64,000 nucleotides of DNA from Escherichia phage ECP2303 (PP261279.1), one strand, 5' to 3'. Shown: positions 10,848 to 36,429, numbered from the stretch's first letter. The notes: generated by a model not told the origin, from the sequence alone. Program-made: numbers and translations.

Positions 10848-11246
10848 TTATTCGTGGGCGCATGTTACAATGTGCTTTTTATAGCCCAGGCGGTCAGCAA
10901 GTGCCGACAAAAACTCTTCTTCGTAGATCCAGCCGTCGGCAGTGATCCCCATAGCATTTAATGCGCTCTCAAGTGCTGCGTTGGCTTTATCATAACCGTG
11001 ACCGCTCGCCTTGCCTCCAGTATAGCCGTACTTATTGTTCTTGTTGTCGTGTATCCAAAAAACGCAGTAGTGAGTGTTCCCGCTGGCGGCGGCATAATAC
11101 CGGATCTCAGCTACTTCGTGCAAATTATTGTCATCGTCCAGGCCCACCAGATTATAAGCCTTGTAAAATCCACGATCACGGCGGCAGTTCTTGACATCAG
11201 AAAAAGAAAAGTCCGCATTATCAAAATTAAAGGTAGTGGTTTTCAT
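10848..11246 (-). CDS. hypothetical protein
   Basis: 132-aa ORF. Confidence 0.65.
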   Translation of the reverse strand: MKTTTFNFDNADFSFSDVKNCRRDRGFYKAYNLVGLDDDNNLHEVAEIRYYAAASGNTHYCVFWIHDNKNNKYGYTGGKASGHGYDKANAALESALNAMGITADGWIYEEEFLSALADRLGYKKHIVTCAHE

Positions 11247-11310
11247 GATTTTATCCTCTTAGTGTCTTTTGTGCTTTTAGTGTATTTGGTGTCGGACTGT
11301 ATGTCAATAC

Positions 11311-11508
11311 TTATTTTTTATTAAACCAGTGGTTGATCTGGCCTTTTGTCAGGGCGCAACGATTAAGCTGTTGCCGAGTATAGCTCTGACCGCGACGGAA
11401 TTTATAAAGGCCTTGCCCGTTGTTGATGGTTACATCCACCCGGCAAACCATTTGATCGGTGACCACCTGGCGAGTGTTGCGACGTACTTTGATTCCGTAG
11501 GCGTTCAT
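11311..11508 (-). CDS. hypothetical basic protein
   Basis: 65-aa ORF; RBS agagaggataaaaaatc-ATG. Confidence 0.6.
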   Translation of the reverse strand: MNAYGIKVRRNTRQVVTDQMVCRVDVTINNGQGLYKFRRGQSYTRQQLNRCALTKGQINHWFNKK

Positions 11509-11561
11509 GATTTTTTATCCTCTCTGTTAATTGGTGTGGTGTTGTTCACCTTGCGAGGATA

Positions 11562-11590
11562 AGAATAACAATAACTGTACGAGCTGTCAA
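11562..11590 (-). promoter_or_regulatory. sigma70-like promoter
   Basis: Minus-sense TTGACA-17 nt-TATTCT upstream of the gene starting at 11508. Confidence 0.35.
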
Positions 11591-11770
11591 CCATTAGTTA
11601 GAATTATTTTTTTTGGGCAGAATTCTCCAGCCGCCGCCCCTACCAGGTTAACCATCGTTTTTTCGTACTCTTCTTTATGTTCCAACGCTCCCGCCATAGC
11701 CTTTTCAACCAGGGCGATAGCCTCAGCGTCATTAATCGCTACATTTCCAGGGGATCAAATTACCTTTCAT
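11588..11770 (-). CDS. possible small gene with frameshift or non-ATG start
   Basis: Strong RBS gaggagg then ATG opens a 12-codon frame (MKGNLIPWKCSD); the +1 frame continues as protein-like ...NDAEAIALVEKAMAGALEHKEEYEKTMVNLVGAAAGEFCPKKIILTNG. Confidence 0.2.
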
Positions 11771-11960
11771 TTTTGTACCTCCTCTTCAATTGTTACCTGC
11801 CCTATAGCATAGGCCTACCAGGTTTGCAAGCTTTCACTCTCTCCTACCTGGTCAGTCAGGTCCTGCCAGGTTGGCCCCGCCAGGTTGCAACGGTTAGCGC
11901 ATCAGGTTAGAATTTTTTTGAAAAGTGTTGACAGCGGCCCCGCCAGGTGGCACAATATAC
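11640..11960. repeat. dispersed CCAGGTT iterons plus two AGGTTAGAATT-T-run elements
   Basis: ccaggtt at ~11643, 11818, 11866, 11880 (caggtt 11903, ccaggtg 11945); aggttagaatt with T-run at ~11596 and ~11905. Confidence 0.45.
11928..11958 (+). promoter_or_regulatory. candidate sigma70-like promoter, plus strand
   Basis: TTGACA-17 nt-CACAAT; followed by the GAGACAA-CACCGGGG motif. Confidence 0.35.
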
Positions 11961-11989
11961 CTATCGGAAGGACGGCAGGCACCGGTGAC

Positions 11990-12009
11990 GGGGGAGACAA
12001 CCACCGGGG
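11990..12009 (+). promoter_or_regulatory. conserved motif GGGGGAGACAACCACCGGGG
   Basis: Close copies at 12126-12144 (same strand), 2368-2386 (opposite strand) and 351-370 (degenerate). Confidence 0.45.
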
Positions 12010-12071
12010 ATGGGCGCTGCATAAAATGAGAACGGTTATCATTATCATTTAAAAATTTATGCAAAAAATCC

Positions 12072-12102
12072 TTGCTTTCTTTGTCCTGTGTGATACTATA
12101 AT
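12072..12102 (+). promoter_or_regulatory. candidate extended -10 sigma70 promoter, plus strand
   Basis: TTGCTT-16 nt-TACTAT(AAT) with TG one nucleotide upstream of the -10. Confidence 0.4.
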
Positions 12103-12125
12103 AACAAGCCGGGGCAACAGGGGCC

Positions 12126-12144
12126 GGGAGACAATCACCGGGGG
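12126..12144 (+). promoter_or_regulatory. conserved motif GGGAGACAATCACCGGGGG
   Basis: Second tandem copy, ~35 nt downstream of the 12072 promoter, followed by gagaatgattatcatt as in copy 1. Confidence 0.45.
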
Positions 12145-12217
12145 TGCCCGTTATTCTGCAAACGAGAATGATTATCATTCAAAATTCTAAATGAGAACTT
12201 TTCGCATTTCATAAATT

Positions 12218-12231
12218 TAGTTAGCATGCTA
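12218..12231. promoter_or_regulatory. perfect 12-bp palindrome TTAGCATGCTAA (operator-like)
   Basis: Read directly in non-coding DNA. Confidence 0.3.
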
Positions 12232-12304
12232 ATTACCTACCGTGACAATTCTATATAAAATAATACCTCCTTAAATATTTCCATATACAAATTTTAAAAA
12301 TCCA

Positions 12305-12480
12305 TTTCCGAAAACGAAAAATCGATTTCGTCCCCAAAAATTTCAGGTCGAGCTCCGGAACGATTTCCAGAAAATCTGATTCAGAAAACGAAAAACAGAT
12401 CGAGTACTAAGAAATTTATCGAGAAAAATTTTCAGAAAATTCAATCTTTGAAACGAAAAACAGATCGAGTACTGAGAGAG
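12305..12480. repeat. three degenerate ~66-74-bp tandem repeats
   Basis: Units begin gaaaacgaaaaa at ~12310, 12384, 12450; units 2 and 3 share cagatcgagtact(a/g)ag. Confidence 0.55.
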
Positions 12481-12631
12481 ATGTATCAAAACCTACTGAG
12501 AATAATGGGCTTATTGTTATAAAAGGTCAAAGGTAAGCTGGGAAAGTTCTGGTAGAAGGGTGAGGGTATGTGCGGAAAATCTGGAATAGTAACTTAAAGT
12601 ACGGTGCGAACGATAGAATGAGCAGCACATC

Positions 12632-12739
12632 TTATCGCGCCTGTCTTGAAAAATCCATTTTAGTTTTCGATCCATTTTCTGATTTTCTAAGAATTTTAAA
12701 ATATCCGGCCAGGTAAAATATCAAAAGGAGGAAATCCAT
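12632..12739 (-). CDS. small membrane peptide (35 aa) with stem-loop over its ribosome-binding site
   Basis: TAAGGAGG RBS 9 nt before ATG; MDFLLLIFYLAGYFKILRK...; the SD GGAGG can pair with CCTCC in codons 3-5. Confidence 0.35.
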   Translation of the reverse strand: MDFLLLIFYLAGYFKILRKSENGSKTKMDFSRQAR

Positions 12740-12784
12740 TTTAGAAATCCTCCTTATACTTGATGTGCCAGGGATTTTCAAGTA

Positions 12785-13114
12785 TCAACTGTCTTTGTTT
12801 TTAGGCTTGTGCATACGTAGAGGTATGGTCTTTATAACATTCCATCTACCCAACCCCTCCCAGTTCCAATTGTGAGCGTGATACCCGGTTATGCATGCAC
12901 TGCTGGCGTGATCATAAGCATAAGAGAACGCTATGCGAACCAAGTGGGGCCAGTCCCTCCACGGCTGTGGACCGTAAGCCTTCCTCCAACACCGACACAA
13001 ACTAATTGTCTCAAGAATAGGTAGAATAACAAATCCATATACCGCCACCAAAATGGTCAGAGCAATGATTGTCAGGAATACATACCCTGCAGTTGAAATA
13101 ATGATCTCTGTCAT
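12785..13114 (-). CDS. membrane protein
   Basis: 109 aa; hydrophobic N-terminal helix AGYVFLTIIALTILVAVYGFVILPIL. Confidence 0.6.
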   Translation of the reverse strand: MTEIIISTAGYVFLTIIALTILVAVYGFVILPILETISLCRCWRKAYGPQPWRDWPHLVRIAFSYAYDHASSACITGYHAHNWNWEGLGRWNVIKTIPLRMHKPKNKDS

Positions 13115-13314
13115 TTGTCATCCCCTTTCTTACGGATATAGATGTGAGAGCCTGCTTGTACATAAATTTCCAGACCATCTTCTGCAAAGATGTGGAATAC
13201 ACGGTCGCCTTCGTATTCAATACGGGATATCTTCATAACGGTCTTCCCACCCGGAATGCGGATCTCATCACCCACAGCAATGTTCCATGCAGATTTAAGC
13301 TTAAACATCTGCAC
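13111..13314 (-). CDS. hypothetical protein
   Basis: 67-aa ORF; 4-nt overlap with the downstream gene. Confidence 0.55.
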   Translation of the reverse strand: MQMFKLKSAWNIAVGDEIRIPGGKTVMKISRIEYEGDRVFHIFAEDGLEIYVQAGSHIYIRKKGDDK

Positions 13315-13546
13315 CCTCCTTTGGGAGCTCTAACTCTGGCATAGCCATATACGCCACAACAGGGTTGTAATCAAAGTAGAAATGACCGTTAATTATCCCA
13401 GTTTTGTGGGCATAGTCACCAGATCCTGCAAGAACAATCTCGCAAACTCCGAAATCCACCTTGCCATTCTCATCTGCCATGGCTACAATATACTTTCCTA
13501 GAGGCATGTTTTTAACGCCGTCTACAAATGTCCACCCTTTGTTCAT
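13301..13546 (-). CDS. hypothetical protein
   Basis: 81-aa ORF. Confidence 0.6.
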   Translation of the reverse strand: MNKGWTFVDGVKNMPLGKYIVAMADENGKVDFGVCEIVLAGSGDYAHKTGIINGHFYFDYNPVVAYMAMPELELPKEGADV

Positions 13547-13566
13547 ACTTTATCTCCTGCACTTTC

Positions 13567-13899
13567 TTAAGGTAACCAGTAAACAATTTCGCCTTTCAGT
13601 TCCATGTCGTTACCGACATAGATTTTCCAGCCATCCATTTTAGCCACTGCAGGAGTGAAGTCCGTAGAACCACTAACCTCTTTCCAAGTCCCGTAGTCAG
13701 GTTGCCAGATATAGAATCCACCTTCCTTGTCCCATGCTCCATATACCACATCGAGCAGGTTGCCCATTGCAACAATAGTAGGCCGTGGGAATAATACATC
13801 TACAGATGCGCCACAATTTCGGGTAGATTTTAAATTACAATCCCAAAAGATGTCTGCCAGTGTGGCGGCGATAGCTTTACGTCTTTCTAATGTTACCAT
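13567..13899 (-). CDS. hypothetical protein
   Basis: 110-aa ORF. Confidence 0.6.
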   Translation of the reverse strand: MVTLERRKAIAATLADIFWDCNLKSTRNCGASVDVLFPRPTIVAMGNLLDVVYGAWDKEGGFYIWQPDYGTWKEVSGSTDFTPAVAKMDGWKIYVGNDMELKGEIVYWLP

Positions 13900-13909
13900 G
13901 GTACGATAC

Positions 13910-14101
13910 TCACTTGTTGTTAAGAAGTTCTAAAACTTTCTGTTTTACTTTATCAAGGTCTGTTGATTCAAAAACTGTGCGATATCCCCAACTTTGCCCA
14001 TAGGAATGACTGCAATCCCCGTAACACCATTGCTCAACTTGATAGTATTCAAGGAATGGGTGCTGTCTAACTATGATGCCGTCTCGATTAAAAATTACCA
14101 T
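13910..14101 (-). CDS. hypothetical protein
   Basis: 63-aa ORF. Confidence 0.55.
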   Translation of the reverse strand: MVIFNRDGIIVRQHPFLEYYQVEQWCYGDCSHSYGQSWGYRTVFESTDLDKVKQKVLELLNNK

Positions 14102-14164
14102 AATTTATCCCTCTCTGCTAGTCTATGTTTGTATTATATACTGCAGTTTTCAGATGTCAACCTT

Positions 14165-14359
14165 TTACAGGTTACTCCAGTATAATCGGCATTTGCATTT
14201 TGGGCAATGAGGTTCTTTTATGTAGTAACCATCAGTCTTTGGAACACTTTTTGGTGCAGTTTTAAGATTGTACCGAGTAAAGCACCGGAAGCAGGTTACC
14301 TCTCCTACCTGTTGATCGTTTATCCACTCACCAGAGTAAAGCTCTTTCTTGTTTCTCAT
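14165..14359 (-). CDS. zinc-ribbon-like small protein
   Basis: ORF-track frame 14165..14416; start moved to MRNKKELY... with RBS agggag; CFRCF...CPKCKC cysteine pairs. Confidence 0.55.
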   Translation of the reverse strand: MRNKKELYSGEWINDQQVGEVTCFRCFTRYNLKTAPKSVPKTDGYYIKEPHCPKCKCRLYWSNL

Positions 14360-14361
14360 AA

Positions 14362-14556
14362 TTATCTCCCTAGTCCTCTGCAATCTTCTACCAGAATCTC
14401 CAGCCAGAAAGCACACGGGAACACTTTGAGGATTGAATCTTTACTCGGCTCGGAAGTTCTTTTTCCATAGGGCAGGTAGAAATACCCTCCTGCAGATTCA
14501 AACATGGCTCCTTCTGTTGTATCTATCACAGCTAGAATTAGGATTTTAGTCTCCAT
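14362..14556 (-). CDS. hypothetical protein
   Basis: 64-aa ORF. Confidence 0.5.
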   Translation of the reverse strand: METKILILAVIDTTEGAMFESAGGYFYLPYGKRTSEPSKDSILKVFPCAFWLEILVEDCRGLGR

Positions 14557-14610
14557 AGTGCTCCCCTGTCTTAATCGTTGTGGTGACTATACCACCTTAA
14601 AATATAGCTG

Positions 14611-15069
14611 TCAACACCCTTTGTACTCCACCACGATAATATCTATATCAAAAGTGGCAAGGTTAATAATGTCCTCTACATGTTCCCACTTCAAACCGCC
14701 TATGCCGCACCCGATCTTAGGGATGTAGAATGGTAAAATCGACCCCTCAAATACTTCATTGACTCGCTCAAATCCTTTCAGTATTGAGAAATATTCAGCA
14801 TTAGGTCCTGGATAGAACTGAGTATACAGATTTATTCCGTAGACAATACCTCTCGGAGATAAGTGCTCCCAACGGGAGAACGCGCCCAGTTTACTTAGGC
14901 AACCGTGCATAGTCATTTTATCAGCTTCCAATGCTTGAGGGAATTCACGAGCAATCTGCTTTGCTACACCCTTCCCCATTGTGTGGAAGCAGTTACAACC
15001 GTGGATCAGGTGACCAGCACCGCTCTTAAAAAGGGAGATTAAATCTCCCTCTACAGTATCAATAATCAC
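14611..15069 (-). CDS. macro-domain protein (ADP-ribose binding/processing family)
   Basis: Translation shows IVIIDTVEGDLI, HGCNCFHTMGKGVAKQI and IPKIGCGIGG, aligning with macro-domain blocks (GDIT, NAAN...GGGGVDGAI, P.ISTG.YG); likely GTG start overlapping the upstream stop. Confidence 0.6.
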   Translation of the reverse strand: MIIDTVEGDLISLFKSGAGHLIHGCNCFHTMGKGVAKQIAREFPQALEADKMTMHGCLSKLGAFSRWEHLSPRGIVYGINLYTQFYPGPNAEYFSILKGFERVNEVFEGSILPFYIPKIGCGIGGLKWEHVEDIINLATFDIDIIVVEYKGC

Positions 15070-15484
15070 GATATTCCAGCTCCTCTTCCACAATTTCAAA
15101 AAACTCAGTCCAGCACTGCGGCATATTGGAGTTACCGAAGTGGCTTTCATAGTAAAGGTTTTTACCGCTCGGAAGATAGAAATCTGTTACCTCATAAAAT
15201 CCACAATCGTCGCACTCTCCCTCTTCAAACTTGGCCTTAATCTTAATACCAAGGAAGGTGAAAAGTTTATGGATATCTTCGGTCTCGAACTCCCAACTAA
15301 TGTTGTTTTCCGCATCGGTGTAAAACTGGATCAGTAGGCCATCATCCATTTTTCCAAAATATTCTGTGAAGTAGCTCCCTTCCCAGAAGTCTTTGTGACA
15401 AATAATATCCATGCGCTTGCCCATAATAAAGGTGTGGGCGTTTCGTGCATCGTCACGAATCAGTTTTGGCATTTCATAAATCAT
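15059..15484 (-). CDS. hypothetical protein
   Basis: 141-aa ORF. Confidence 0.65.
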   Translation of the reverse strand: MIYEMPKLIRDDARNAHTFIMGKRMDIICHKDFWEGSYFTEYFGKMDDGLLIQFYTDAENNISWEFETEDIHKLFTFLGIKIKAKFEEGECDDCGFYEVTDFYLPSGKNLYYESHFGNSNMPQCWTEFFEIVEEELEYRDY

Positions 15485-15549
15485 CGTAGTTCTCCAGGAT
15501 CAATAGGTGGTGCTACAGGAAGATCATAAAACATGGCGATCACATTCTC

Positions 15550-15747
15550 TTACGCAGGAATTGCTTCAAACAGGCCGTTATCGATACCATCTTTCAAGTA
15601 AAGATTATACTCTATGTCGGTATCTGTGTAAAGGGCAGCATCCAGCATTCTATCTGTGAGTCCATCCATTGGGTGGAGAAACCACCACCCACGCCAGTCA
15701 AAGTAACAACCTGGTGCATCTTCTCTCACACGGATTCGATAAATCAT
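15550..15747 (-). CDS. hypothetical protein
   Basis: 65-aa ORF; RBS aggagg. Confidence 0.55.
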   Translation of the reverse strand: MIYRIRVREDAPGCYFDWRGWWFLHPMDGLTDRMLDAALYTDTDIEYNLYLKDGIDNGLFEAIPA

Positions 15748-15843
15748 GGGCAGTGGCCTCCTGTTAGTTACACATCCCAGTTTTCTTCGTTCATCACATC
15801 CTCCAGCTCTACAAGGTTATAATTGCACACCTTACAACCTGTG

Positions 15844-16260
15844 TCAACAGAAAACTTCAACAAATTCTTCCACAGTTTTAATGTCGTGGGAAAAAGGTTT
15901 ACGGCTATAACGAGCAATAGCACTGTCAACCACCGCCCGGTACTCCAAATCTTCAGAATATTTCATGAAGCATTGCAATGTCTCTGGACAGATAGCCAGA
16001 TAGCTCCACCACCCCTCTTCAGATTGGTAGTCAAATCCCATACTCTCTAGCCACGAAGCGTATACACCTGCACCTTCCAGCCAGTGAGTATTTTCATCAA
16101 GGAACTTGTTCACAGTCATGTGAGCTTCTAAGCATTTATCCAACTCTTTTCCGTTAACCAGCCACGCACTGACAGTGGCGCATCCAAGGTCCACAGATTG
16201 GGTTGATAGATTGTATTGGTCATAGTTCTCAGGTTTAACAATGATATCTTCTAATGTCAT
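15844..16260 (-). CDS. hypothetical protein
   Basis: 138-aa ORF; RBS agagagg. Confidence 0.65.
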   Translation of the reverse strand: MTLEDIIVKPENYDQYNLSTQSVDLGCATVSAWLVNGKELDKCLEAHMTVNKFLDENTHWLEGAGVYASWLESMGFDYQSEEGWWSYLAICPETLQCFMKYSEDLEYRAVVDSAIARYSRKPFSHDIKTVEEFVEVFC

Positions 16261-16279
16261 TTTTCAGTCCTCTCTATAC

Positions 16280-16308
16280 AAAAATGCCCCACCCTTTCGG
16301 GTAGGGCT
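16280..16308 (-). terminator. rho-independent terminator with GAAA tetraloop
   Basis: Minus-sense gccctacccGAAAgggtggggc followed by atttttgtat; near-identical copy at 26439-26467. Confidence 0.6.
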
Positions 16309-16322
16309 ATGTTAACTAGATG

Positions 16323-17549
16323 TTAAAAAGGTATGTCATCATCAAAGGCGTACTGTGCCGGATTCTGATCCATCGGGTCGTCTTCCGCATCATCTACAGG
16401 AGGAGCGTCTACAGTGTTTTGCTGTGGGGCGGCTTCCTGTTTGGCAGCTTGAGGCTCTTGATGGTCAGTGGCTCCAGCACCGTTCTTGATCCAATCATAC
16501 AACGGTTCAGCAAGATTAGTCAAGACATCTTTTGCCTCTGCAGTAATTGCTACTGCAAAATCATCAACTTTCGTTTTCTTGTCAATACGGCGACAAGCGT
16601 TCAATACCGCATTACCAACACTGGCACCTACTTCATCTTCAGTTCGGTTAGTGGCTTGAGCGTACTCTTTCTTAAGCTCGATGGTGACCACGTGCAGTGT
16701 TTTAGCCACATCTAAAGGGCTGTCAATCTTAAACCCGCGATCCAGGATGATCTGCAATGCATTGATACTGTGCCCTGTCTCTACACCGATGGGGTCGTAA
16801 GAGGATTTACGCTTACCACCAGAACCTTGTGTACCGTTCTCTGCTTTAGGCGGGTAGGCCTTGAAGCCGCTGATAATATTCCCGGTGTCTTTGTCAACAA
16901 TAGCTGCAACACGACCGCCAACCACCAGGTCTTTAAGCTGCTCATCAGAGACAACCATAGCACCTTCACCAATCTTGTGATCATTGACAGTAACCACGTT
17001 GCCAACAATCTGAGTCACATCACCATAGATGCGTAAAACGTCCTGATTGGCATTCTGCTGAGGTTTCTGCTTCTGGCCTTGTGATTGTGTGCCTTGTTGC
17101 TGTTTTTGTTGCTGTGGAGCTGCTGGAGCCTCTCCTGCCCCCAACTTAACCATTTTAGCCAGTGAGCCTTTGTAGTAGGTCTTGCCGTTATGCTCGTTTG
17201 CCTTCAAAGGGATATTTACGATCCATCCTGGCGTTACGGTTTCCCACTTGTCGTCAATTTTAACAGAGACGGAGTCTTGATGACCAGGCTTAAGCAGCTT
17301 ATCACCCATACTGATCCAAACTTCTTCACCACCTTGGAGCAGGTTATCAGAGGAGTCCAGTTCAGAAATCAGTAAAGAGATGGTGTGGCTGGATTCAATT
17401 TTCTTACCTTGCCACACAGTGGTTTTAATACCTGTTGTAGGATCAGCACCTTTAATGGGCTTGATGCTGACACGTTTAATCATACCGTGAGCCAGTAAAA
17501 CAGTTTCACGCGGATTCATCGGGTTGGCAAATTGTTGAATAACGCTCAT
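16323..17549 (-). CDS. single-stranded DNA-binding protein-like (acidic C-terminal DDDIPF tail, Q-rich linker)
   Basis: C-terminus ...AQYAFDDDIPF matches the bacterial SSB tail signature; start at MSVIQQ... with RBS aaggagacaaata-ATG rather than the upstream ORF-track start. Confidence 0.6.
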   Translation of the reverse strand: MSVIQQFANPMNPRETVLLAHGMIKRVSIKPIKGADPTTGIKTTVWQGKKIESSHTISLLISELDSSDNLLQGGEEVWISMGDKLLKPGHQDSVSVKIDDKWETVTPGWIVNIPLKANEHNGKTYYKGSLAKMVKLGAGEAPAAPQQQKQQQGTQSQGQKQKPQQNANQDVLRIYGDVTQIVGNVVTVNDHKIGEGAMVVSDEQLKDLVVGGRVAAIVDKDTGNIISGFKAYPPKAENGTQGSGGKRKSSYDPIGVETGHSINALQIILDRGFKIDSPLDVAKTLHVVTIELKKEYAQATNRTEDEVGASVGNAVLNACRRIDKKTKVDDFAVAITAEAKDVLTNLAEPLYDWIKNGAGATDHQEPQAAKQEAAPQQNTVDAPPVDDAEDDPMDQNPAQYAFDDDIPF

Positions 17550-32082: not shown

Positions 32083-34039
32083 TCAGTTCACGGTATTCAA
32101 TCATAGCAGGAGTGTCCCAATATTTCAAGCCTACATGCTTCAAAAGTGGATATTTCTTTTCCAATCTTGCAATATAGGCCTTCCCGCACTTAACCCGGTT
32201 GGCGATTAAGATTTTGGCACGATGATTTAGCTCACCGTACTTCCACGTGGTGCTACCTTCCCACTTGTGAAAATGTGGCCGATAACTTCCAAAATCCTGC
32301 ATGGGGATAATTTTACCTAACTGTCTGTACAGGCTGTCATATGAAGTTTCATTTGCTGCGCGAGTTAGTAAGAATTTCCAAGCATCCTCTTTCAACAAAT
32401 GTTCCACATTCTTCTCTGTAACATATTGGCAATCAGGATCAGTCCAAAGCAGACGAGATTCCGACACCAGGTACAGATCTTCCCCTTCAGGAATCTGGAG
32501 TGCCGCACGCACACGGTCATAATCTTGCTGGTAGATGTTGCTCATCTGCCCTAGCCAACAACTTCCGCGTTGGATATCCCCCTCATACGGTATGCAGTGC
32601 TTAATCTTCCTGAACTCTGCCTTAGTAATACGCTCACGCCGGAAGTAACCATCCTTCTCAAGTTTTTTAACCCAATAGCCTGGTTCGTAACGGGTTTTGG
32701 TTTCACCTTTCTTCGTAGGTCGGCGTGGAAGCTCCGATAACAATTTGACCGTATCTGCAAAAAACGGATGGTGTGCCGCCTCTTTAAACTCTTTCACCAG
32801 ATCCGTGTTACGGCAATAGAAAACGTTGCGTCCGGTAATCTCGCTTAAGTAGTTACACTTATTCCGGTTATATTTGCCGTCTCCGTCGTTAAATACTAAA
32901 TAAACTCCCCGTAAGAATTCTACCTTTCCGTAGCAGGCGTAACCTATGCGGCCTTTATTTAAGCCGCCAGCGAAGATCTCGCAGTCCCCCAAATTTCCTA
33001 GCCCTGTTTCTTCCCAGCGGTCATACATAAAATTCTTACCGAAGATGTGCCCGAACACTCCACTGTTCTTCATCATCTCGCGTGCTTCTGAGGATGTTTT
33101 TGCTGTCTCCAGTTCTGCAACAACTTCTGCTCCACGAAGGCGAATGCCTTCTTTGACAAAAGCTTCCAAACGCTCTTGGAATCCACCATCGTCGTGACCT
33201 TCTATGGTCCATTCACGCCCTGGGTTAATATTGCAATCTCCGATAGGGATCTCTACACAAATTGCAGGATAATCTATTAGTGTCTCCAGGAACTTAGAAC
33301 GGTAAGGTTGGTGACCCATTACCACACGACTCTCGTCAGAGCTGGTATAACCCTTCAGGATGGTCATTTTCCAACCATCCTTCTCGTAGTGATACTGCGC
33401 CTCAACCTTGTCACCTTCCAGCATCTTACTGGTCATAGGGTCGGTAACGGTAAACGGAAACTTTGCATAGCGTAGGCATGACGCAATAGCAGTGCGATAT
33501 TTCAGGACATGCTCTTTCTTAACATGGAACTGAACTTTTACCCCGTTGTGCTCTTCAGTCTTCCGCTCGCGGATCTTGGTAACGTTTGGGATACCCTGAT
33601 CCAAGAACAATAGATATGTGCTTTCAACACCATTGTGCACACTGATAACATCGAAAGTGTCCACCATGCTGAACGGAGCCTTTGAACCAACACCTTTATT
33701 ACCTACCAGAGCGTTGCTGTTGCGCTTGGTTGACTCCCCGAGGTTCATGAAAGTGTTGCGGACCATCTCTTCTGACATGCCCAATCCAACGTCCTGCACA
33801 AAGAAGTATGGTTCAAGGTCTGTAGGGGAGTGAATGATGATCGGTACATCACCCCGTCCAGACTCAACATGAGAGTCCACAGCATTGAAGATTGGTTCAC
33901 GGCAGCTTGCCAGCACCTTATCTTCGTAAATCCCTTTAATGATTAGCCCAAAAGTCTCTTTGTTCAGAGAAATTGAGCCCCTGGTGACCTCCATATTTCC
34001 GGTTAGTACTGCTTTAGTTTCATTACTGTTTACAATCAT
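32057..34039 (-). CDS. GHKL-type ATPase domain protein (Hsp90/MutL/histidine-kinase-like fold; rIIA-like)
   Basis: 660 aa; N-box REPIFNAVDS, G1 VQDVGLGMS, G2 GNKGVGSKAPF in GHKL order and spacing. Confidence 0.6.
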   Translation of the reverse strand: MIVNSNETKAVLTGNMEVTRGSISLNKETFGLIIKGIYEDKVLASCREPIFNAVDSHVESGRGDVPIIIHSPTDLEPYFFVQDVGLGMSEEMVRNTFMNLGESTKRNSNALVGNKGVGSKAPFSMVDTFDVISVHNGVESTYLLFLDQGIPNVTKIRERKTEEHNGVKVQFHVKKEHVLKYRTAIASCLRYAKFPFTVTDPMTSKMLEGDKVEAQYHYEKDGWKMTILKGYTSSDESRVVMGHQPYRSKFLETLIDYPAICVEIPIGDCNINPGREWTIEGHDDGGFQERLEAFVKEGIRLRGAEVVAELETAKTSSEAREMMKNSGVFGHIFGKNFMYDRWEETGLGNLGDCEIFAGGLNKGRIGYACYGKVEFLRGVYLVFNDGDGKYNRNKCNYLSEITGRNVFYCRNTDLVKEFKEAAHHPFFADTVKLLSELPRRPTKKGETKTRYEPGYWVKKLEKDGYFRRERITKAEFRKIKHCIPYEGDIQRGSCWLGQMSNIYQQDYDRVRAALQIPEGEDLYLVSESRLLWTDPDCQYVTEKNVEHLLKEDAWKFLLTRAANETSYDSLYRQLGKIIPMQDFGSYRPHFHKWEGSTTWKYGELNHRAKILIANRVKCGKAYIARLEKKYPLLKHVGLKYWDTPAMIEYRELIDTKNNIK

Positions 34040-34536
34040 TTATTGCGCTCCTTGTAGTAGATATGACTCCCGAACTGAGCTGTCCTCTGCATCTTTTTTG
34101 CCCATTTCGGTCGTACTTTGGTTGTATGGTAGTGTGTTGCTCCACCTGTTATGTCCATAGCCATGTATGCAACATGGTTGTTATTATAGACCTTTAGAAG
34201 CATCTTTGCAAGACTTTTAGCGTGATCCCATGAATCTTTTTCTGTCACCTTAAAAGTTTTGCCGTGGTTTGTCCACGAAAACTGGTTAGGTTGGTAGACA
34301 ATCTTTCTTATGGTGTCTGGGTATTTGGGGTGAGATTTCCTGTTTAGGGTGGCAAACCCAGATGCCAGCATACCCATCGTGCCATCCCCTCTAGCTTCCC
34401 TGTAGATATTGCATGCTAGAATGTTTTCCTTAGTATCTGATGGCTTGCAAGTATGGTATACTTTTTGTTTTGGTGCTGCAACAACAGGCAGCGATAAAAA
34501 TGCGCTCAAAATAATAGCAAAGATCTTAATTTTCAC
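34036..34536 (-). CDS. secreted cell-wall hydrolase, SleB/CwlJ-like
   Basis: 166 aa; signal peptide MKIKIFAIILSAFLSLPVVAA; NIYREARGDG...ATLNR...YQPNQFSW matches the SleB-type signature; probable GTG start. Confidence 0.65.
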   Translation of the reverse strand: MKIKIFAIILSAFLSLPVVAAPKQKVYHTCKPSDTKENILACNIYREARGDGTMGMLASGFATLNRKSHPKYPDTIRKIVYQPNQFSWTNHGKTFKVTEKDSWDHAKSLAKMLLKVYNNNHVAYMAMDITGGATHYHTTKVRPKWAKKMQRTAQFGSHIYYKERNK

Positions 34537-34554
34537 AATAACTCCAAATAGAAA

Positions 34555-34576
34555 ATCCCCGCCGAAGCGGGGGAGG
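34555..34576 (-). terminator. terminator/attenuator hairpin
   Basis: Minus-sense cccccgcttcggcgggg followed by attttctattt; same stem-loop as 60698-60713. Confidence 0.45.
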
Positions 34577-34585
34577 TCTTAGAAA

Positions 34586-34966
34586 TTAATCGTAGTGTGC
34601 CAAAATCTCTCCATCGTTGCAAGTTCCCTCTACAAAGTTATGAAGATTCATGCACTCATCTTGATAGAAGAATTTACCGCTTTTCAGCCGTAAGCCAAAC
34701 AACTCCGCATCTCCACGATGGCAAGCCTCTACAAGTTCATAGATTTCATACGGCAACTCTCCGTCGTCATGGAAGAACCCAGCCTTATCGTTGACATAGA
34801 TGAAGAAATAATCACTGCTGTCGCAAGCGTCCAATATTTTAAACCAGATTTCATCTACATCTTTTTCTCGGATATCGATCACGCAAGTGGAGCTGCATTC
34901 GTACTCCTTCTCCGGCTCCTCGGTCAATACCACCAGGTAGTTTCCCCGCTTACCTACTTTAGCCAT
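34586..34966 (-). CDS. hypothetical protein
   Basis: 126-aa ORF. Confidence 0.6.
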   Translation of the reverse strand: MAKVGKRGNYLVVLTEEPEKEYECSSTCVIDIREKDVDEIWFKILDACDSSDYFFIYVNDKAGFFHDDGELPYEIYELVEACHRGDAELFGLRLKSGKFFYQDECMNLHNFVEGTCNDGEILAHYD

Positions 34967-34975
34967 ACAACCTCC

Positions 34976-36160
34976 TTAAGCTTTAGCCAAAATGGCGCTA
35001 AACTCTTCACCAAACTCTTTTACAATCTTCATCAGGTTTGGGTATGCTTTGATCAGCTGAGCAACGATCTTGTCACGACCTTTACCGATAAGCAAGGCAT
35101 TTCCTAAGGCATTAGGTTTCATCATCGCCATAAAGACTGAAAATACAAAATCTCGGTTCTCGTCCTTGAAGTTTTCCCAAAGGAAATCGAGAAAGTTTGC
35201 CACACAGCTAACAAGATCTTCGTCGGAGATACTTGCATTTTCCATCATATTACGAATAGCGATGCAACCTTCAGATCCAAGAATCCACAAGATGTCTGGC
35301 TGTTTAGGACCTACGTATTCTTTGCAACCTCCTGCCATAATCCGACCGATTTCCGGTAAGTTGCGTTTCTTGGTGTGGTAAGTCCAGATCTCTACCGCTG
35401 CAGTGTGACCAATAGCACCTTGCAGAAGAACACGGGCCATAGCGTCAGAAATAATACCGCTGTCAAAATCGTGCAAGATATCAGATGCAGCAACCCAAGA
35501 TCGCGGTGTGGCAAAAGATGGACAATTAATCTCAGCCATGGCCTCATAATTATCGATAGCTGATGGAACTCTTTTCAGATATCCAATTACAGAGGAGTGC
35601 ACCCCATTAAGGAATGCGTAGTCCTCAATAAACACCTCTGCATTGCTTGTAACCTCTACAATGATAAAACGGTTAGCCAGAGGGGCTTCGAGCGCCGAAA
35701 GAACCGCACCATCTGTAGAACGGTTACCAGCAGCCACAAAAACAGACCCCTTAGGGAATGCATAAGTACCGCACTTGTGGTCAAGCATAATTTGCATTGC
35801 AACCTTTTGTAGGTAGTTATCTGCATGAGTGAGCTCATCCAGAAAGATAATTCCGCTCCAGTCAGGATCCGCAGGCCAAAATTCTGGAATTGCAAACACT
35901 GTACGTGTAGTTCCATCCGCTTCTACAGGGATAGGTAGCCCAGATAAGTCGGCAGGATCTTTATCTGACAGCCGCACGTCAACAAGGTTGTCATCTCGCT
36001 CACCGAACATATTATCAGCGATCTGCTTCATCACCTGGCTTTTACCTACACCCATTGGTCCCAAAATTAGGACAGATCGGCTATGACGTTGGGCAAACTG
36101 AATAATAGCTGGCAACTCACGGACAGTGATTTGACCACTTTCGAATACGTTTCTTGACAT
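34976..36160 (-). CDS. MoxR-like AAA+ ATPase (AAA_5-type)
   Basis: 394 aa; Walker A LILGPMGVGKSQ; Walker B IIFLDELTHA; AAGNRS. Confidence 0.75.
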   Translation of the reverse strand: MSRNVFESGQITVRELPAIIQFAQRHSRSVLILGPMGVGKSQVMKQIADNMFGERDDNLVDVRLSDKDPADLSGLPIPVEADGTTRTVFAIPEFWPADPDWSGIIFLDELTHADNYLQKVAMQIMLDHKCGTYAFPKGSVFVAAGNRSTDGAVLSALEAPLANRFIIVEVTSNAEVFIEDYAFLNGVHSSVIGYLKRVPSAIDNYEAMAEINCPSFATPRSWVAASDILHDFDSGIISDAMARVLLQGAIGHTAAVEIWTYHTKKRNLPEIGRIMAGGCKEYVGPKQPDILWILGSEGCIAIRNMMENASISDEDLVSCVANFLDFLWENFKDENRDFVFSVFMAMMKPNALGNALLIGKGRDKIVAQLIKAYPNLMKIVKEFGEEFSAILAKA

Positions 36161-36429
36161 TAGTAAAAGTCCTCTACTTGTGTGTAAGTGTTTTCAAAGT
36201 TTTCCAAAACAGATATCACATCGGATCTGTCAATATCATACGTGACTCTCCAGTTGTACGCAACCCTTTCTGCTGTTGCCTCTTCTGGCGCTAGTCGTCT
36301 GCTGGCATAAAAGAGTGTTGGAGTACACTTTCTTGCTTGCCCTCTAACTTTCCCATAATAATATCTGTGAATATCTTTGTCAAAATTTAACTCTTTTTCT
36401 GCACGAAGTTCATATTGCTGGTATAACAT
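36160..36429 (-). CDS. hypothetical protein
   Basis: 89-aa ORF; ATGA overlap with the MoxR-like gene. Confidence 0.55.
   Translation of the reverse strand: MLYQQYELRAEKELNFDKDIHRYYYGKVRGQARKCTPTLFYASRRLAPEEATAERVAYNWRVTYDIDRSDVISVLENFENTYTQVEDFY

Follow-up and report, generated by a model that had tools for sequence, protein, structure and literature searches.

A stand-alone macrodomain gene of a Vequintavirus phage, homologous to T4 Tk.4 (AdfM), as a candidate counter-defence hydrolase against DarT2

In phage T4, tk.4 was the sole gene depleted from a transposon library (HIDEN-SEQ) on DarTG2, a clean knockout sensitised T4 to DarTG2, and the gene was renamed adfM (bioRxiv 10.1101/2025.11.20.689424). 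For a chimallivirus protein, AdfM of PhiKZ, in vitro biochemistry has demonstrated the removal of T-linked ADP-ribose from DNA (PMC13309987). The two AdfM names were given independently, and the PhiKZ protein, set apart by its retained Lys78, belongs to another macrodomain lineage. In bacteria, SCO6735, which has Gln85 at the position of the catalytic lysine, hydrolyses thymidine-linked ADP-ribose on DNA and protects Streptomyces from DarT; its Q85A, Q85E and N27S variants are inactive, and a water-mediated mechanism was proposed in which the glutamine positions the distal ribose (PMC9411070). A different role is known from phage NARP1 operons, which use Adps and Namat to rebuild NAD+ from ADP-ribose (ADPR): 15% of them include a Poa1p-like macrodomain, Adpp, and the RES-domain defence aRES yields ADPR-1''-phosphate (10.64898/2026.01.28.702374). 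Here we describe a stand-alone macrodomain gene located on the minus strand of a 64,000-nucleotide stretch of DNA from Escherichia phage ECP2303 (PP261279.1), referred to below as the window. Across the window, the sequence shows 100% identity to that of Escherichia phage ECP2309 (PP464953.1), an rV5-like Vequintavirus whose genome measures 136.9 kb, and subtracting 459 from a record coordinate gives the window coordinate.

The gene encodes a protein of 152 amino acids (aa) (Table 1). The corresponding GenBank coding sequence (CDS) of PP464953.1, WXX18279.1, has identical ends and is labelled 'macro domain protein'. The translation contains VEGDLISLF, HGCNCFHTMGKGVAKQIA, YIPKIGCGIGGLKW and IPKIGCGIGG, and every macrodomain block quoted in the initial annotation, which named no strand, is present in this minus-strand translation. 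The GTG start overlapping the upstream stop, also proposed there, was borne out: the GTG shares 11 nt with the 3' end of an upstream 141-aa gene, whose TGA is at 15061-15059, and it is conserved in Vequintavirus, with both the GTG and the Shine-Dalgarno-like sequence kept in two other genomes, bov10K2 and C12. The Krischvirus ortholog carries ATG at the GTG codon with near-identical nucleotides after it, and the ATG start of T4 Tk.4 is the homologous residue, the N-terminus MII.TV.GD being common to both. A mechanically called open reading frame (ORF) of 179 aa, which begins with an ATG at 15150, would run over the upstream gene and is not backed by any homolog; it was rejected as the gene because the homologs start at the GTG/ATG codon.

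The protein has the three-layer alpha/beta/alpha macro fold. It matched Pfam Macro PF01661 over the whole profile (positions 1-118 of 118) with E = 1.3e-7 and 32 bits, against a gathering cut-off of 22, and PHROG 335 ('phosphatase') with E = 1.6e-60, and 2,809 phage records contain a homolog by tblastn. From the homolog alignment, AlphaFold2 produced a model with a mean predicted local distance difference test (pLDDT) score of 96.6 and a predicted template modelling (pTM) score of 0.91. Its nearest structural neighbours are of the TARG1/DarG/Poa1p/SCO6735 ('ALC1-like') class, not of the MacroD, PARG or viral-Mac1 types. Structure prediction had been proposed in the initial annotation as a check, and the macro fold was found by the model, by Pfam and by the structural neighbours alike. 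The dN/dS ratios between intact Vequintavirus orthologs, calculated in pairs, were 0.09-0.18. The family resemblance, as measured by Pfam, PHROG 335, the pLDDT of the model and dN/dS, is far beyond chance; the gene is real, is under purifying selection, has a macro fold of the TARG1/DarG/Poa1p class, is a homolog of Tk.4 and has conserved active-site residues.

The top match to the model in BFVD, ahead of phage Tk.4, was A0A481YV05 (Marseillevirus LCMAC103, 302 aa, 'SNF2 subfamily protein'; TM 0.94, 40% identity), which comes from a giant-virus metagenome bin; the gene may be shared, or else the contig was wrongly binned. Sorting DarG-like from Poa1p-like proteins by their rank among PDB matches was tried and was uninformative, with Mtb DarG ranked first for the window protein, BT1257 and Poa1p for T4 Tk.4, and TARG1 and SCO6735 for the Adpp-like protein of Cilsick.

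The closest proteins with a genetically supported role are those of the Tk.4 group. T4 Tk.4 is 41% identical to the window protein over the full length (153 columns; E = 7e-43, 126 bits). Higher identity, 71%, was found with Tk.4 of the Krischvirus vB_EcoM_Skers (2501-2956 of extract L006), the gene for which is located between vs and tk, as tk.4 is in T4. As Skers Tk.4 and T4 Tk.4 are only 44% identical, the Vequintavirus and Krischvirus genes are each other's closest relatives. The first 23 nt of the Skers and window genes are, apart from ATG/GTG, nearly identical, which together with the mutual kinship indicates gene exchange between unrelated phage families and points to a putative counter-defence gene that moves between them. 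In a neighbour-joining tree, the Vequintavirus and Krischvirus Tk.4 proteins grouped together at 98% bootstrap, and the T4 Tk.4 proteins were their sister group. Within Tequatrovirus, the Tk.4 proteins of T4 and UFV-AREG1 are 58% identical, suggesting that the gene evolves or is swapped fast.

The residues around the predicted ADP-ribose-binding cleft are strongly conserved. Among 70 aligned homologs, G24, N26, G34, A36, N80, Q84, P117, G120 and G122 are invariant, and H23, M31, G32, I119 and G125 are kept in at least 90%. Both ADP-ribose-binding loops are present, namely MGKGVA after strand 2 and the diphosphate loop PKIGCGIGG. N26 corresponds to N22 of TaqDarG, N27 of SCO6735 and N23 of PhiKZ AdfM (residue roles: PMC9411070, PMC13309987), while H23 matches H23 of Poa1p and H24 of SCO6735. 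H23 and T30 align with Poa1p H23 and S30, two residues for which structures of Poa1p point mutants have been solved (H23A, S30A).

At the position of the catalytic lysine (TARG1 K84, DarG K80), the window protein has Gln84 instead. In the profile alignment, the YTQ of the invariant N-L-Y-T-Q falls on ITK of TARG1 and on PTK of Mtb DarG. Asp125 of TARG1, the partner of its lysine, is likewise replaced, with Gly124 aligned there; DarG and SCO6735 also lack this Asp. The spacing of 58 residues between the Asn and the Gln/Lys is the same in the window protein, TaqDarG (N22-K80) and SCO6735 (N27-Q85). From this spacing and the alignments to TARG1 and DarG, we infer that Gln84 is the equivalent of SCO6735 Gln85.

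Taken together, we consider it moderately probable that the protein is an AdfM-type orphan antitoxin-like macrodomain hydrolase, which strips DarT2-made ADP-ribose from thymidine in phage DNA by means of a Gln-type (SCO6735-like) site. The substrate, the phenotype and the early timing given here for the protein are predictions. The protein would be made early from host-type promoters, probably co-translated with the acidic protein encoded upstream. H23/N26 and two loops, MGKG and GCGIGG, make up the canonical macro cleft in which the ADP-ribose moiety would be bound, and hydrolysis would take place at the ribose C1''. Catalysis is predicted to be of the SCO6735 type and not of the Lys-dependent DarG/TARG1 type, with Gln84, held by Asn26, positioning the distal ribose for attack by water. 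The likeliest substrate would be the ADP-ribose that the host's DarT2 puts on thymidine of single-stranded phage DNA, and once it is removed, replication could go on in E. coli hosts that carry DarTG2.

Reversal of DarT-type DNA ADP-ribosylation had been suggested in the initial annotation, and among the readings considered it is the one with the best support: the homology to Tk.4, the need of T4 for Tk.4 against DarTG2, and the macro part of DarG as the only match in PADLOC (E = 2e-14) and NCBIfam (E = 2e-12), the role being assigned by homology. The novelty implied at that stage has to be reduced, as the gene had already been annotated and a counter-defence role for the family had already been published. 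The other suggestion, degradation of NAD-derived signals or action against Thoeris, found no specific support.

Several observations weigh against a role in reversing DarT2 modification. For ECP2309, this role is suggested by homology, and the T4 precedent itself is genetic and comes from a preprint, in which the DNA de-ADP-ribosylation step was inferred (10.1101/2025.11.20.689424). The node that joins the clade of the window protein to T4 Tk.4 has a bootstrap of 38%. DarG has approximately 340 aa with a C-terminal DarT-binding domain, whereas the 152-aa window protein lacks that domain. A darT gene was looked for beside the macro gene, and the ten neighbours, which belong to PHROGs of unknown function, carried no ART (ADP-ribosyltransferase) domain and none was found in the GenBank annotation. 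The two lysines with which SCO6735 holds DNA are not conserved, as relatives have Ala or Ser in place of K33 of the window protein and the residue at the K89 position is not a lysine, and the protein is mildly acidic (pI 5.8). One member of the same sequence family, Adpp of Vibrio phage Gary, is a proven ADPR-1''-phosphate phosphatase (10.64898/2026.01.28.702374). The NARP1-linked homologs share the invariant Gln, His and Asn, so that no residue separates the two activities, and the NARP1-linked copy of Aci05 falls near the Tk.4-like groups in the tree. The full-length DarG equivalog model NF048014 was matched with 47 bits against a cut-off of 250, at profile positions 3-143 of 338.

The main rival explanation, possible if rather doubtful, makes the protein an ADPR-1''-phosphate phosphatase of the kind known from Adpp and yeast Poa1p, converting ADPR-1''P to ADPR and thus detoxifying or recycling a metabolite instead of repairing DNA; the two roles may not be exclusive. 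The family goes by 'phosphatase' or 'Poa1p-like' in PHROG 335 and many GenBank records, the top structural neighbours include Poa1p, with its H23 and S30 aligned as described above, and the purified Gary protein, from an Adps-macro-Namat operon, converts ADPR-1P to ADPR (10.64898/2026.01.28.702374). The positional counterparts of Adpp in Cilsick (Vibrio), Aci05 (Acinetobacter) and GEC_PNG3 (Pseudomonas) are 33-36% identical to the window protein; however, they score 74-83 bits, compared with 126 bits for T4 Tk.4, and the window protein lies outside the Cilsick/PNG3/Bas61 clade, which stands apart in the tree. RES-type NADase defences, aRES among them, are one possible source of the ADPR-1''P. 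A tblastn search with two Adps-like and two Namat-like queries of record positions 460-136,863 of the 136,863-bp ECP2309 genome returned nothing at E <= 1, and as Adpp works only with NARP1, the absence of Adps and Namat in this search weakens an Adpp role. The ADPR-1''P could also arise as a by-product of the phage's own sirtuin/RNA-ligase/kinase RNA-repair cassette. ECP2309 has a cassette of this type at 96.5-100.8 kb of the PP464953.1 record (32126-36377 of extract L010), with DsrC-like, phosphoesterase, AAA/polynucleotide kinase, RNA ligase and Sir2-like proteins. The cassette of phage V5 was proposed to use NAD+ to remove RNA 2'-phosphates, generating ADPr>P (Iyer et al., PMC9503650), and a Poa1p-like enzyme might then be needed to clear the product away. 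Against this, approximately 84 kb separate the RNA-repair cassette from the macro gene, whose neighbours are early genes without known function, and the V5-type sirtuin is not coupled to a macro gene (Iyer et al., PMC9503650). A combination of both activities can be envisaged, although we think it unlikely: the Gln-type phage macrodomains (Tk.4/AdfM, the Vequintavirus protein and Adpp) may both strip the ADP-ribose added by DarT2 and dephosphorylate the ADPR-1''-phosphate of RES-type NADases, by cleaving any good leaving group at C1''.

A quite improbable alternative is the reversal of protein or RNA ADP-ribosylation, or the deacetylation of O-acetyl-ADP-ribose, with the modification coming from another host ART or sirtuin defence or from the phage's own sirtuin. 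The structural class is promiscuous, TARG1 and SCO6735 also acting on protein-linked ADP-ribose (PMC9411070), and the phage does encode a Sir2-like protein. On the other hand, neighbour annotation and profile searches found no adjacent ART or sirtuin gene, and the Lys84/Asp125 dyad that TARG1 uses for Glu-linked protein ADP-ribose is absent, with Gln84 and Gly124 in its place. Several database sources name homologs 'O-acetyl-ADP-ribose deacetylase', but these are automatic names and not tests. With regard to RNA, T4 is strongly restricted by the mRNA ADP-ribosyltransferase system CmdTAC despite having Tk.4 (PMC11618068), and the Tk.4 family therefore probably does not erase mRNA ADP-ribosylation. 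We regard it as very improbable that the protein is a non-catalytic binder, acting as a sponge for NAD-derived signals (gcADPR of Thoeris) or as a direct inhibitor of DarT without hydrolysis. Catalytically dead SCO6735, DarG and TARG1 do still inhibit DarT by interaction (PMC9411070); however, the SCO6735-type catalytic residues (His, Asn, Gln and the Gly loop) are invariant or nearly so in the 70 homologs, which argues for an enzyme rather than a binder. The similarity to the ThsA macrodomain is also much weaker than that to the hydrolases. In addition, no anti-Thoeris protein is known to be a macrodomain.

The behaviour of the gene in related phages bears on when it would be useful. The ortholog in Bas54, bas54_0092, is 80% identical and labelled 'hypothetical protein'. 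It carried insertions at 31 of its 31 TA sites and was classed as non-essential on K-12 by HIDEN-SEQ; the Bas54 data cover K-12 and clinical isolates, and no DarTG2 run was found. Four naturally disrupted alleles (P0017, P0019, P0033 and P0051) were found in phage contigs of 12-135 kb. In P0017, residues 1-54 of the 141-aa protein are fused in frame to macro residues ~85-152 through a deletion between QFY codon repeats, and in P0019 there is an in-frame deletion between two WEH motifs; both deletions remove Gln84. P0033 and P0051 are frameshifted. All four alleles come from automated assemblies, and the frameshifts could thus be errors. Strong purifying selection on intact copies, together with repeated loss of the gene, is what a counter-defence gene of conditional use would be expected to show.

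The macro gene belongs to a block of approximately 60 genes, most of them small, that share the minus strand and almost all lack an assigned function. In a consensus scan, 28 sigma-70-like matches were found in 12-19 kb, mostly on the coding strand, compared with 14.3 ± 3.9 expected. A run of small same-strand genes enriched in promoter-like matches is consistent with the early operon described in the initial annotation, and the block that contains the macro gene fits an early region. The 141-aa gene and the macro gene are probably translationally coupled, because the stop codon of the former overlaps the start of the latter, and the same 11-nt overlap occurs in Bas54 and bov10K2. The 141-aa protein had only four homologs, all in Vequintavirus-like contigs, and no match in Pfam or NCBIfam; its AlphaFold2 model, with a pLDDT of 44, was too poor for a fold search. 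It stays a candidate, as yet without a family match in those two databases, for a stand-in for the DarT-binding domain of DarG. A conserved C-x2-C motif was also observed in it.

Table 1. Positions of the macrodomain gene, its predicted active-site codons, nearby features and comparison cassettes (window coordinates, unless an extract is named)
Feature	Position	Strand	Basis and remarks
Macrodomain CDS, 152 aa, stand-alone	14611..15069	minus	GTG start 15069-15067, TGA stop 14613-14611; ORF and translation
Shine-Dalgarno-like GAGGAG, 10 nt 5' of GTG, within end of upstream gene	15080..15085	minus	Read from sequence
Codons H23-G24-C25-N26	14992..15003	minus	N26 is the conserved macro Asn; 70-homolog alignment, Poa1p alignment
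Codon CAG, Gln84	14818..14820	minus	Invariant in 70 homologs; at catalytic Lys position of TARG1 (K84) and DarG (K80)
Codons P117-K-I-G-C-G-I-G-G125, glycine-rich diphosphate-binding loop	14695..14721	minus	Aligned to TARG1 PRIGCGLDR
Upstream acidic protein, 141 aa, pI 4.4, unknown function	15059..15484	minus	ORF; PHROG 8157
Sigma-70-like TTTACA-17-TATAAT, 11/12	15604..15632	minus	Upstream of two-gene unit; consensus scan only, no functional evidence
Sigma-70-like TTGACA-17-AATTAT, extended -10 TG	15819..15847	minus	Upstream of 65-aa ORF preceding two-gene unit; consensus scan only
Sigma-70-like TTGACA-17-TATAGT, 11/12, TG	14586..14614	minus	Overlaps macro stop; would drive next downstream small genes; consensus scan only
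NARP1-like cassette, Aci05	extract L008, 904-4474
NARP1-like cassette, Cilsick	extract L009, 3132-6138
NARP1-like cassette, GEC_PNG3	extract L014, 469-3980
NARP1-like cassette, Escherichia phage EmilieFrey/Bas61	extract L015, 1741-3956

Other features of the region were recorded during the analysis. A 64-aa protein encoded two genes downstream (14165-14359, minus strand) matched Pfam PF23903, 'Phage zinc binding domain', with E = 8e-23, and is the sole neighbour with a family assignment. No tRNA was found at the locus and no Rfam family in the scanned part (11000-17000), and no copy of the gene was found at the DNA level in complete E. coli genomes, whether host or prophage. Approximately 0.9 kb at ~11700-12630 has no annotated gene in ECP2309, no tRNA and no Rfam match in the part scanned, and a long imperfect hairpin followed by a T-run was seen at 12341-12304 on the minus strand. 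Sixteen 'Campylobacter phage' records that give C. jejuni as the host (including MG065635.1, C12, UNVERIFIED) are approximately 91% identical to this phage across the region and are placed in Vequintavirus by the GenBank taxonomy; their host label looks doubtful. Distant members of the family were found in or beside NARP1-like cassettes (PRPP-synthetase-like Adps with NAMPT/NAPRT-like Namat), often adjoining an RNA ligase, a layout that matches that of NARP1-AP/Adpp. In Bas61, the macro domain forms the C-terminal part of a 244-aa protein beside a phosphoribosyltransferase and a HAD-like gene.

If the assignment is true, Vequintavirus phages, which are popular candidates for use against E. coli in phage therapy and biocontrol, come equipped with a countermeasure to DarTG2, and the gene could help to predict which DarTG2-positive clinical strains fall within their host range. 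The 'orphan antitoxin' strategy, known from NADAR/AdfN against DarTG1 and macro/AdfM against DarTG2, would then also be found in a third large group among the lytic phages of E. coli. If both activities were combined in the family, a single gene for 150 aa would blunt two mechanistically unrelated defence classes, in Vequintavirus perhaps jointly with the coupled, lineage-specific 141-aa acidic protein. The window protein would be a convenient test case for substrate choice, as its family contains both a genetic anti-DarTG2 factor and a biochemical ADPR-1''-phosphate phosphatase with identical active-site residues.

Compared with the known systems, the window protein resembles DarG of DarTG2 (TaqDarG/Mtb DarG; PDB 5M31, 5M3E, 5M3I, 7OMU) in its conserved Asn 58 residues before the catalytic position; however, the catalytic residue is Lys80 in DarG and Gln84 here, and darG adjoins darT, whereas the window gene has none beside it. 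Chimallivirus AdfM (PhiKZ gp104; PMC13309987) is likewise a phage orphan macrodomain countering DarTG2, but it keeps the DarG-type Lys (N23/K78), enters the phage nucleus and is expressed late, whereas the window protein has Gln and its gene is apparently in an early region.

With SCO6735 of Streptomyces coelicolor (PDB 5E3B; PMC9411070), the window protein shares the stand-alone architecture, the structural class, the Gln at the catalytic-Lys position, the His-x-x-Asn motif and a Lys seven residues past the Asn (K34 in SCO6735, K33 here). SCO6735 acts on dT-ADPr in DNA by cleaving it and is protective against DarT, and its own gene has no darT beside it. It differs in being a bacterial housekeeping or stress protein, with approximately 24% identity and a DNA contact, K89, that has no counterpart in the window protein. 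Adpp of Gary, and Poa1p (PDB 6LFQ), belong to the same family at the PHROG level and have the invariant His, Asn and Gln, and Adpp is also a phage counter-defence enzyme acting at the ribose C1''. Adpp, in contrast, lies within the Adps-macro-Namat operon and works only with it, whereas no Adps or Namat accompanies the window gene in ECP2309.

From T4 Tk.4, or AdfM (anti-DarT factor Macrodomain), the window gene differs in its position, as tk.4 lies between vs and tk whereas the window gene is coupled to the Vequintavirus-specific acidic 141-aa gene, and in its start codon, GTG instead of ATG; the anti-DarTG2 phenotype has been shown for T4 only. Both, however, are stand-alone macrodomains of approximately 150 aa from large lytic E. 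coli myophages, both are dispensable on K-12 and have neither NARP1 genes nor an ART neighbour, and both carry the motifs HGCNCFHTMG.G.A, NLYTQF.PGPN.EY and P.IG.GIG.

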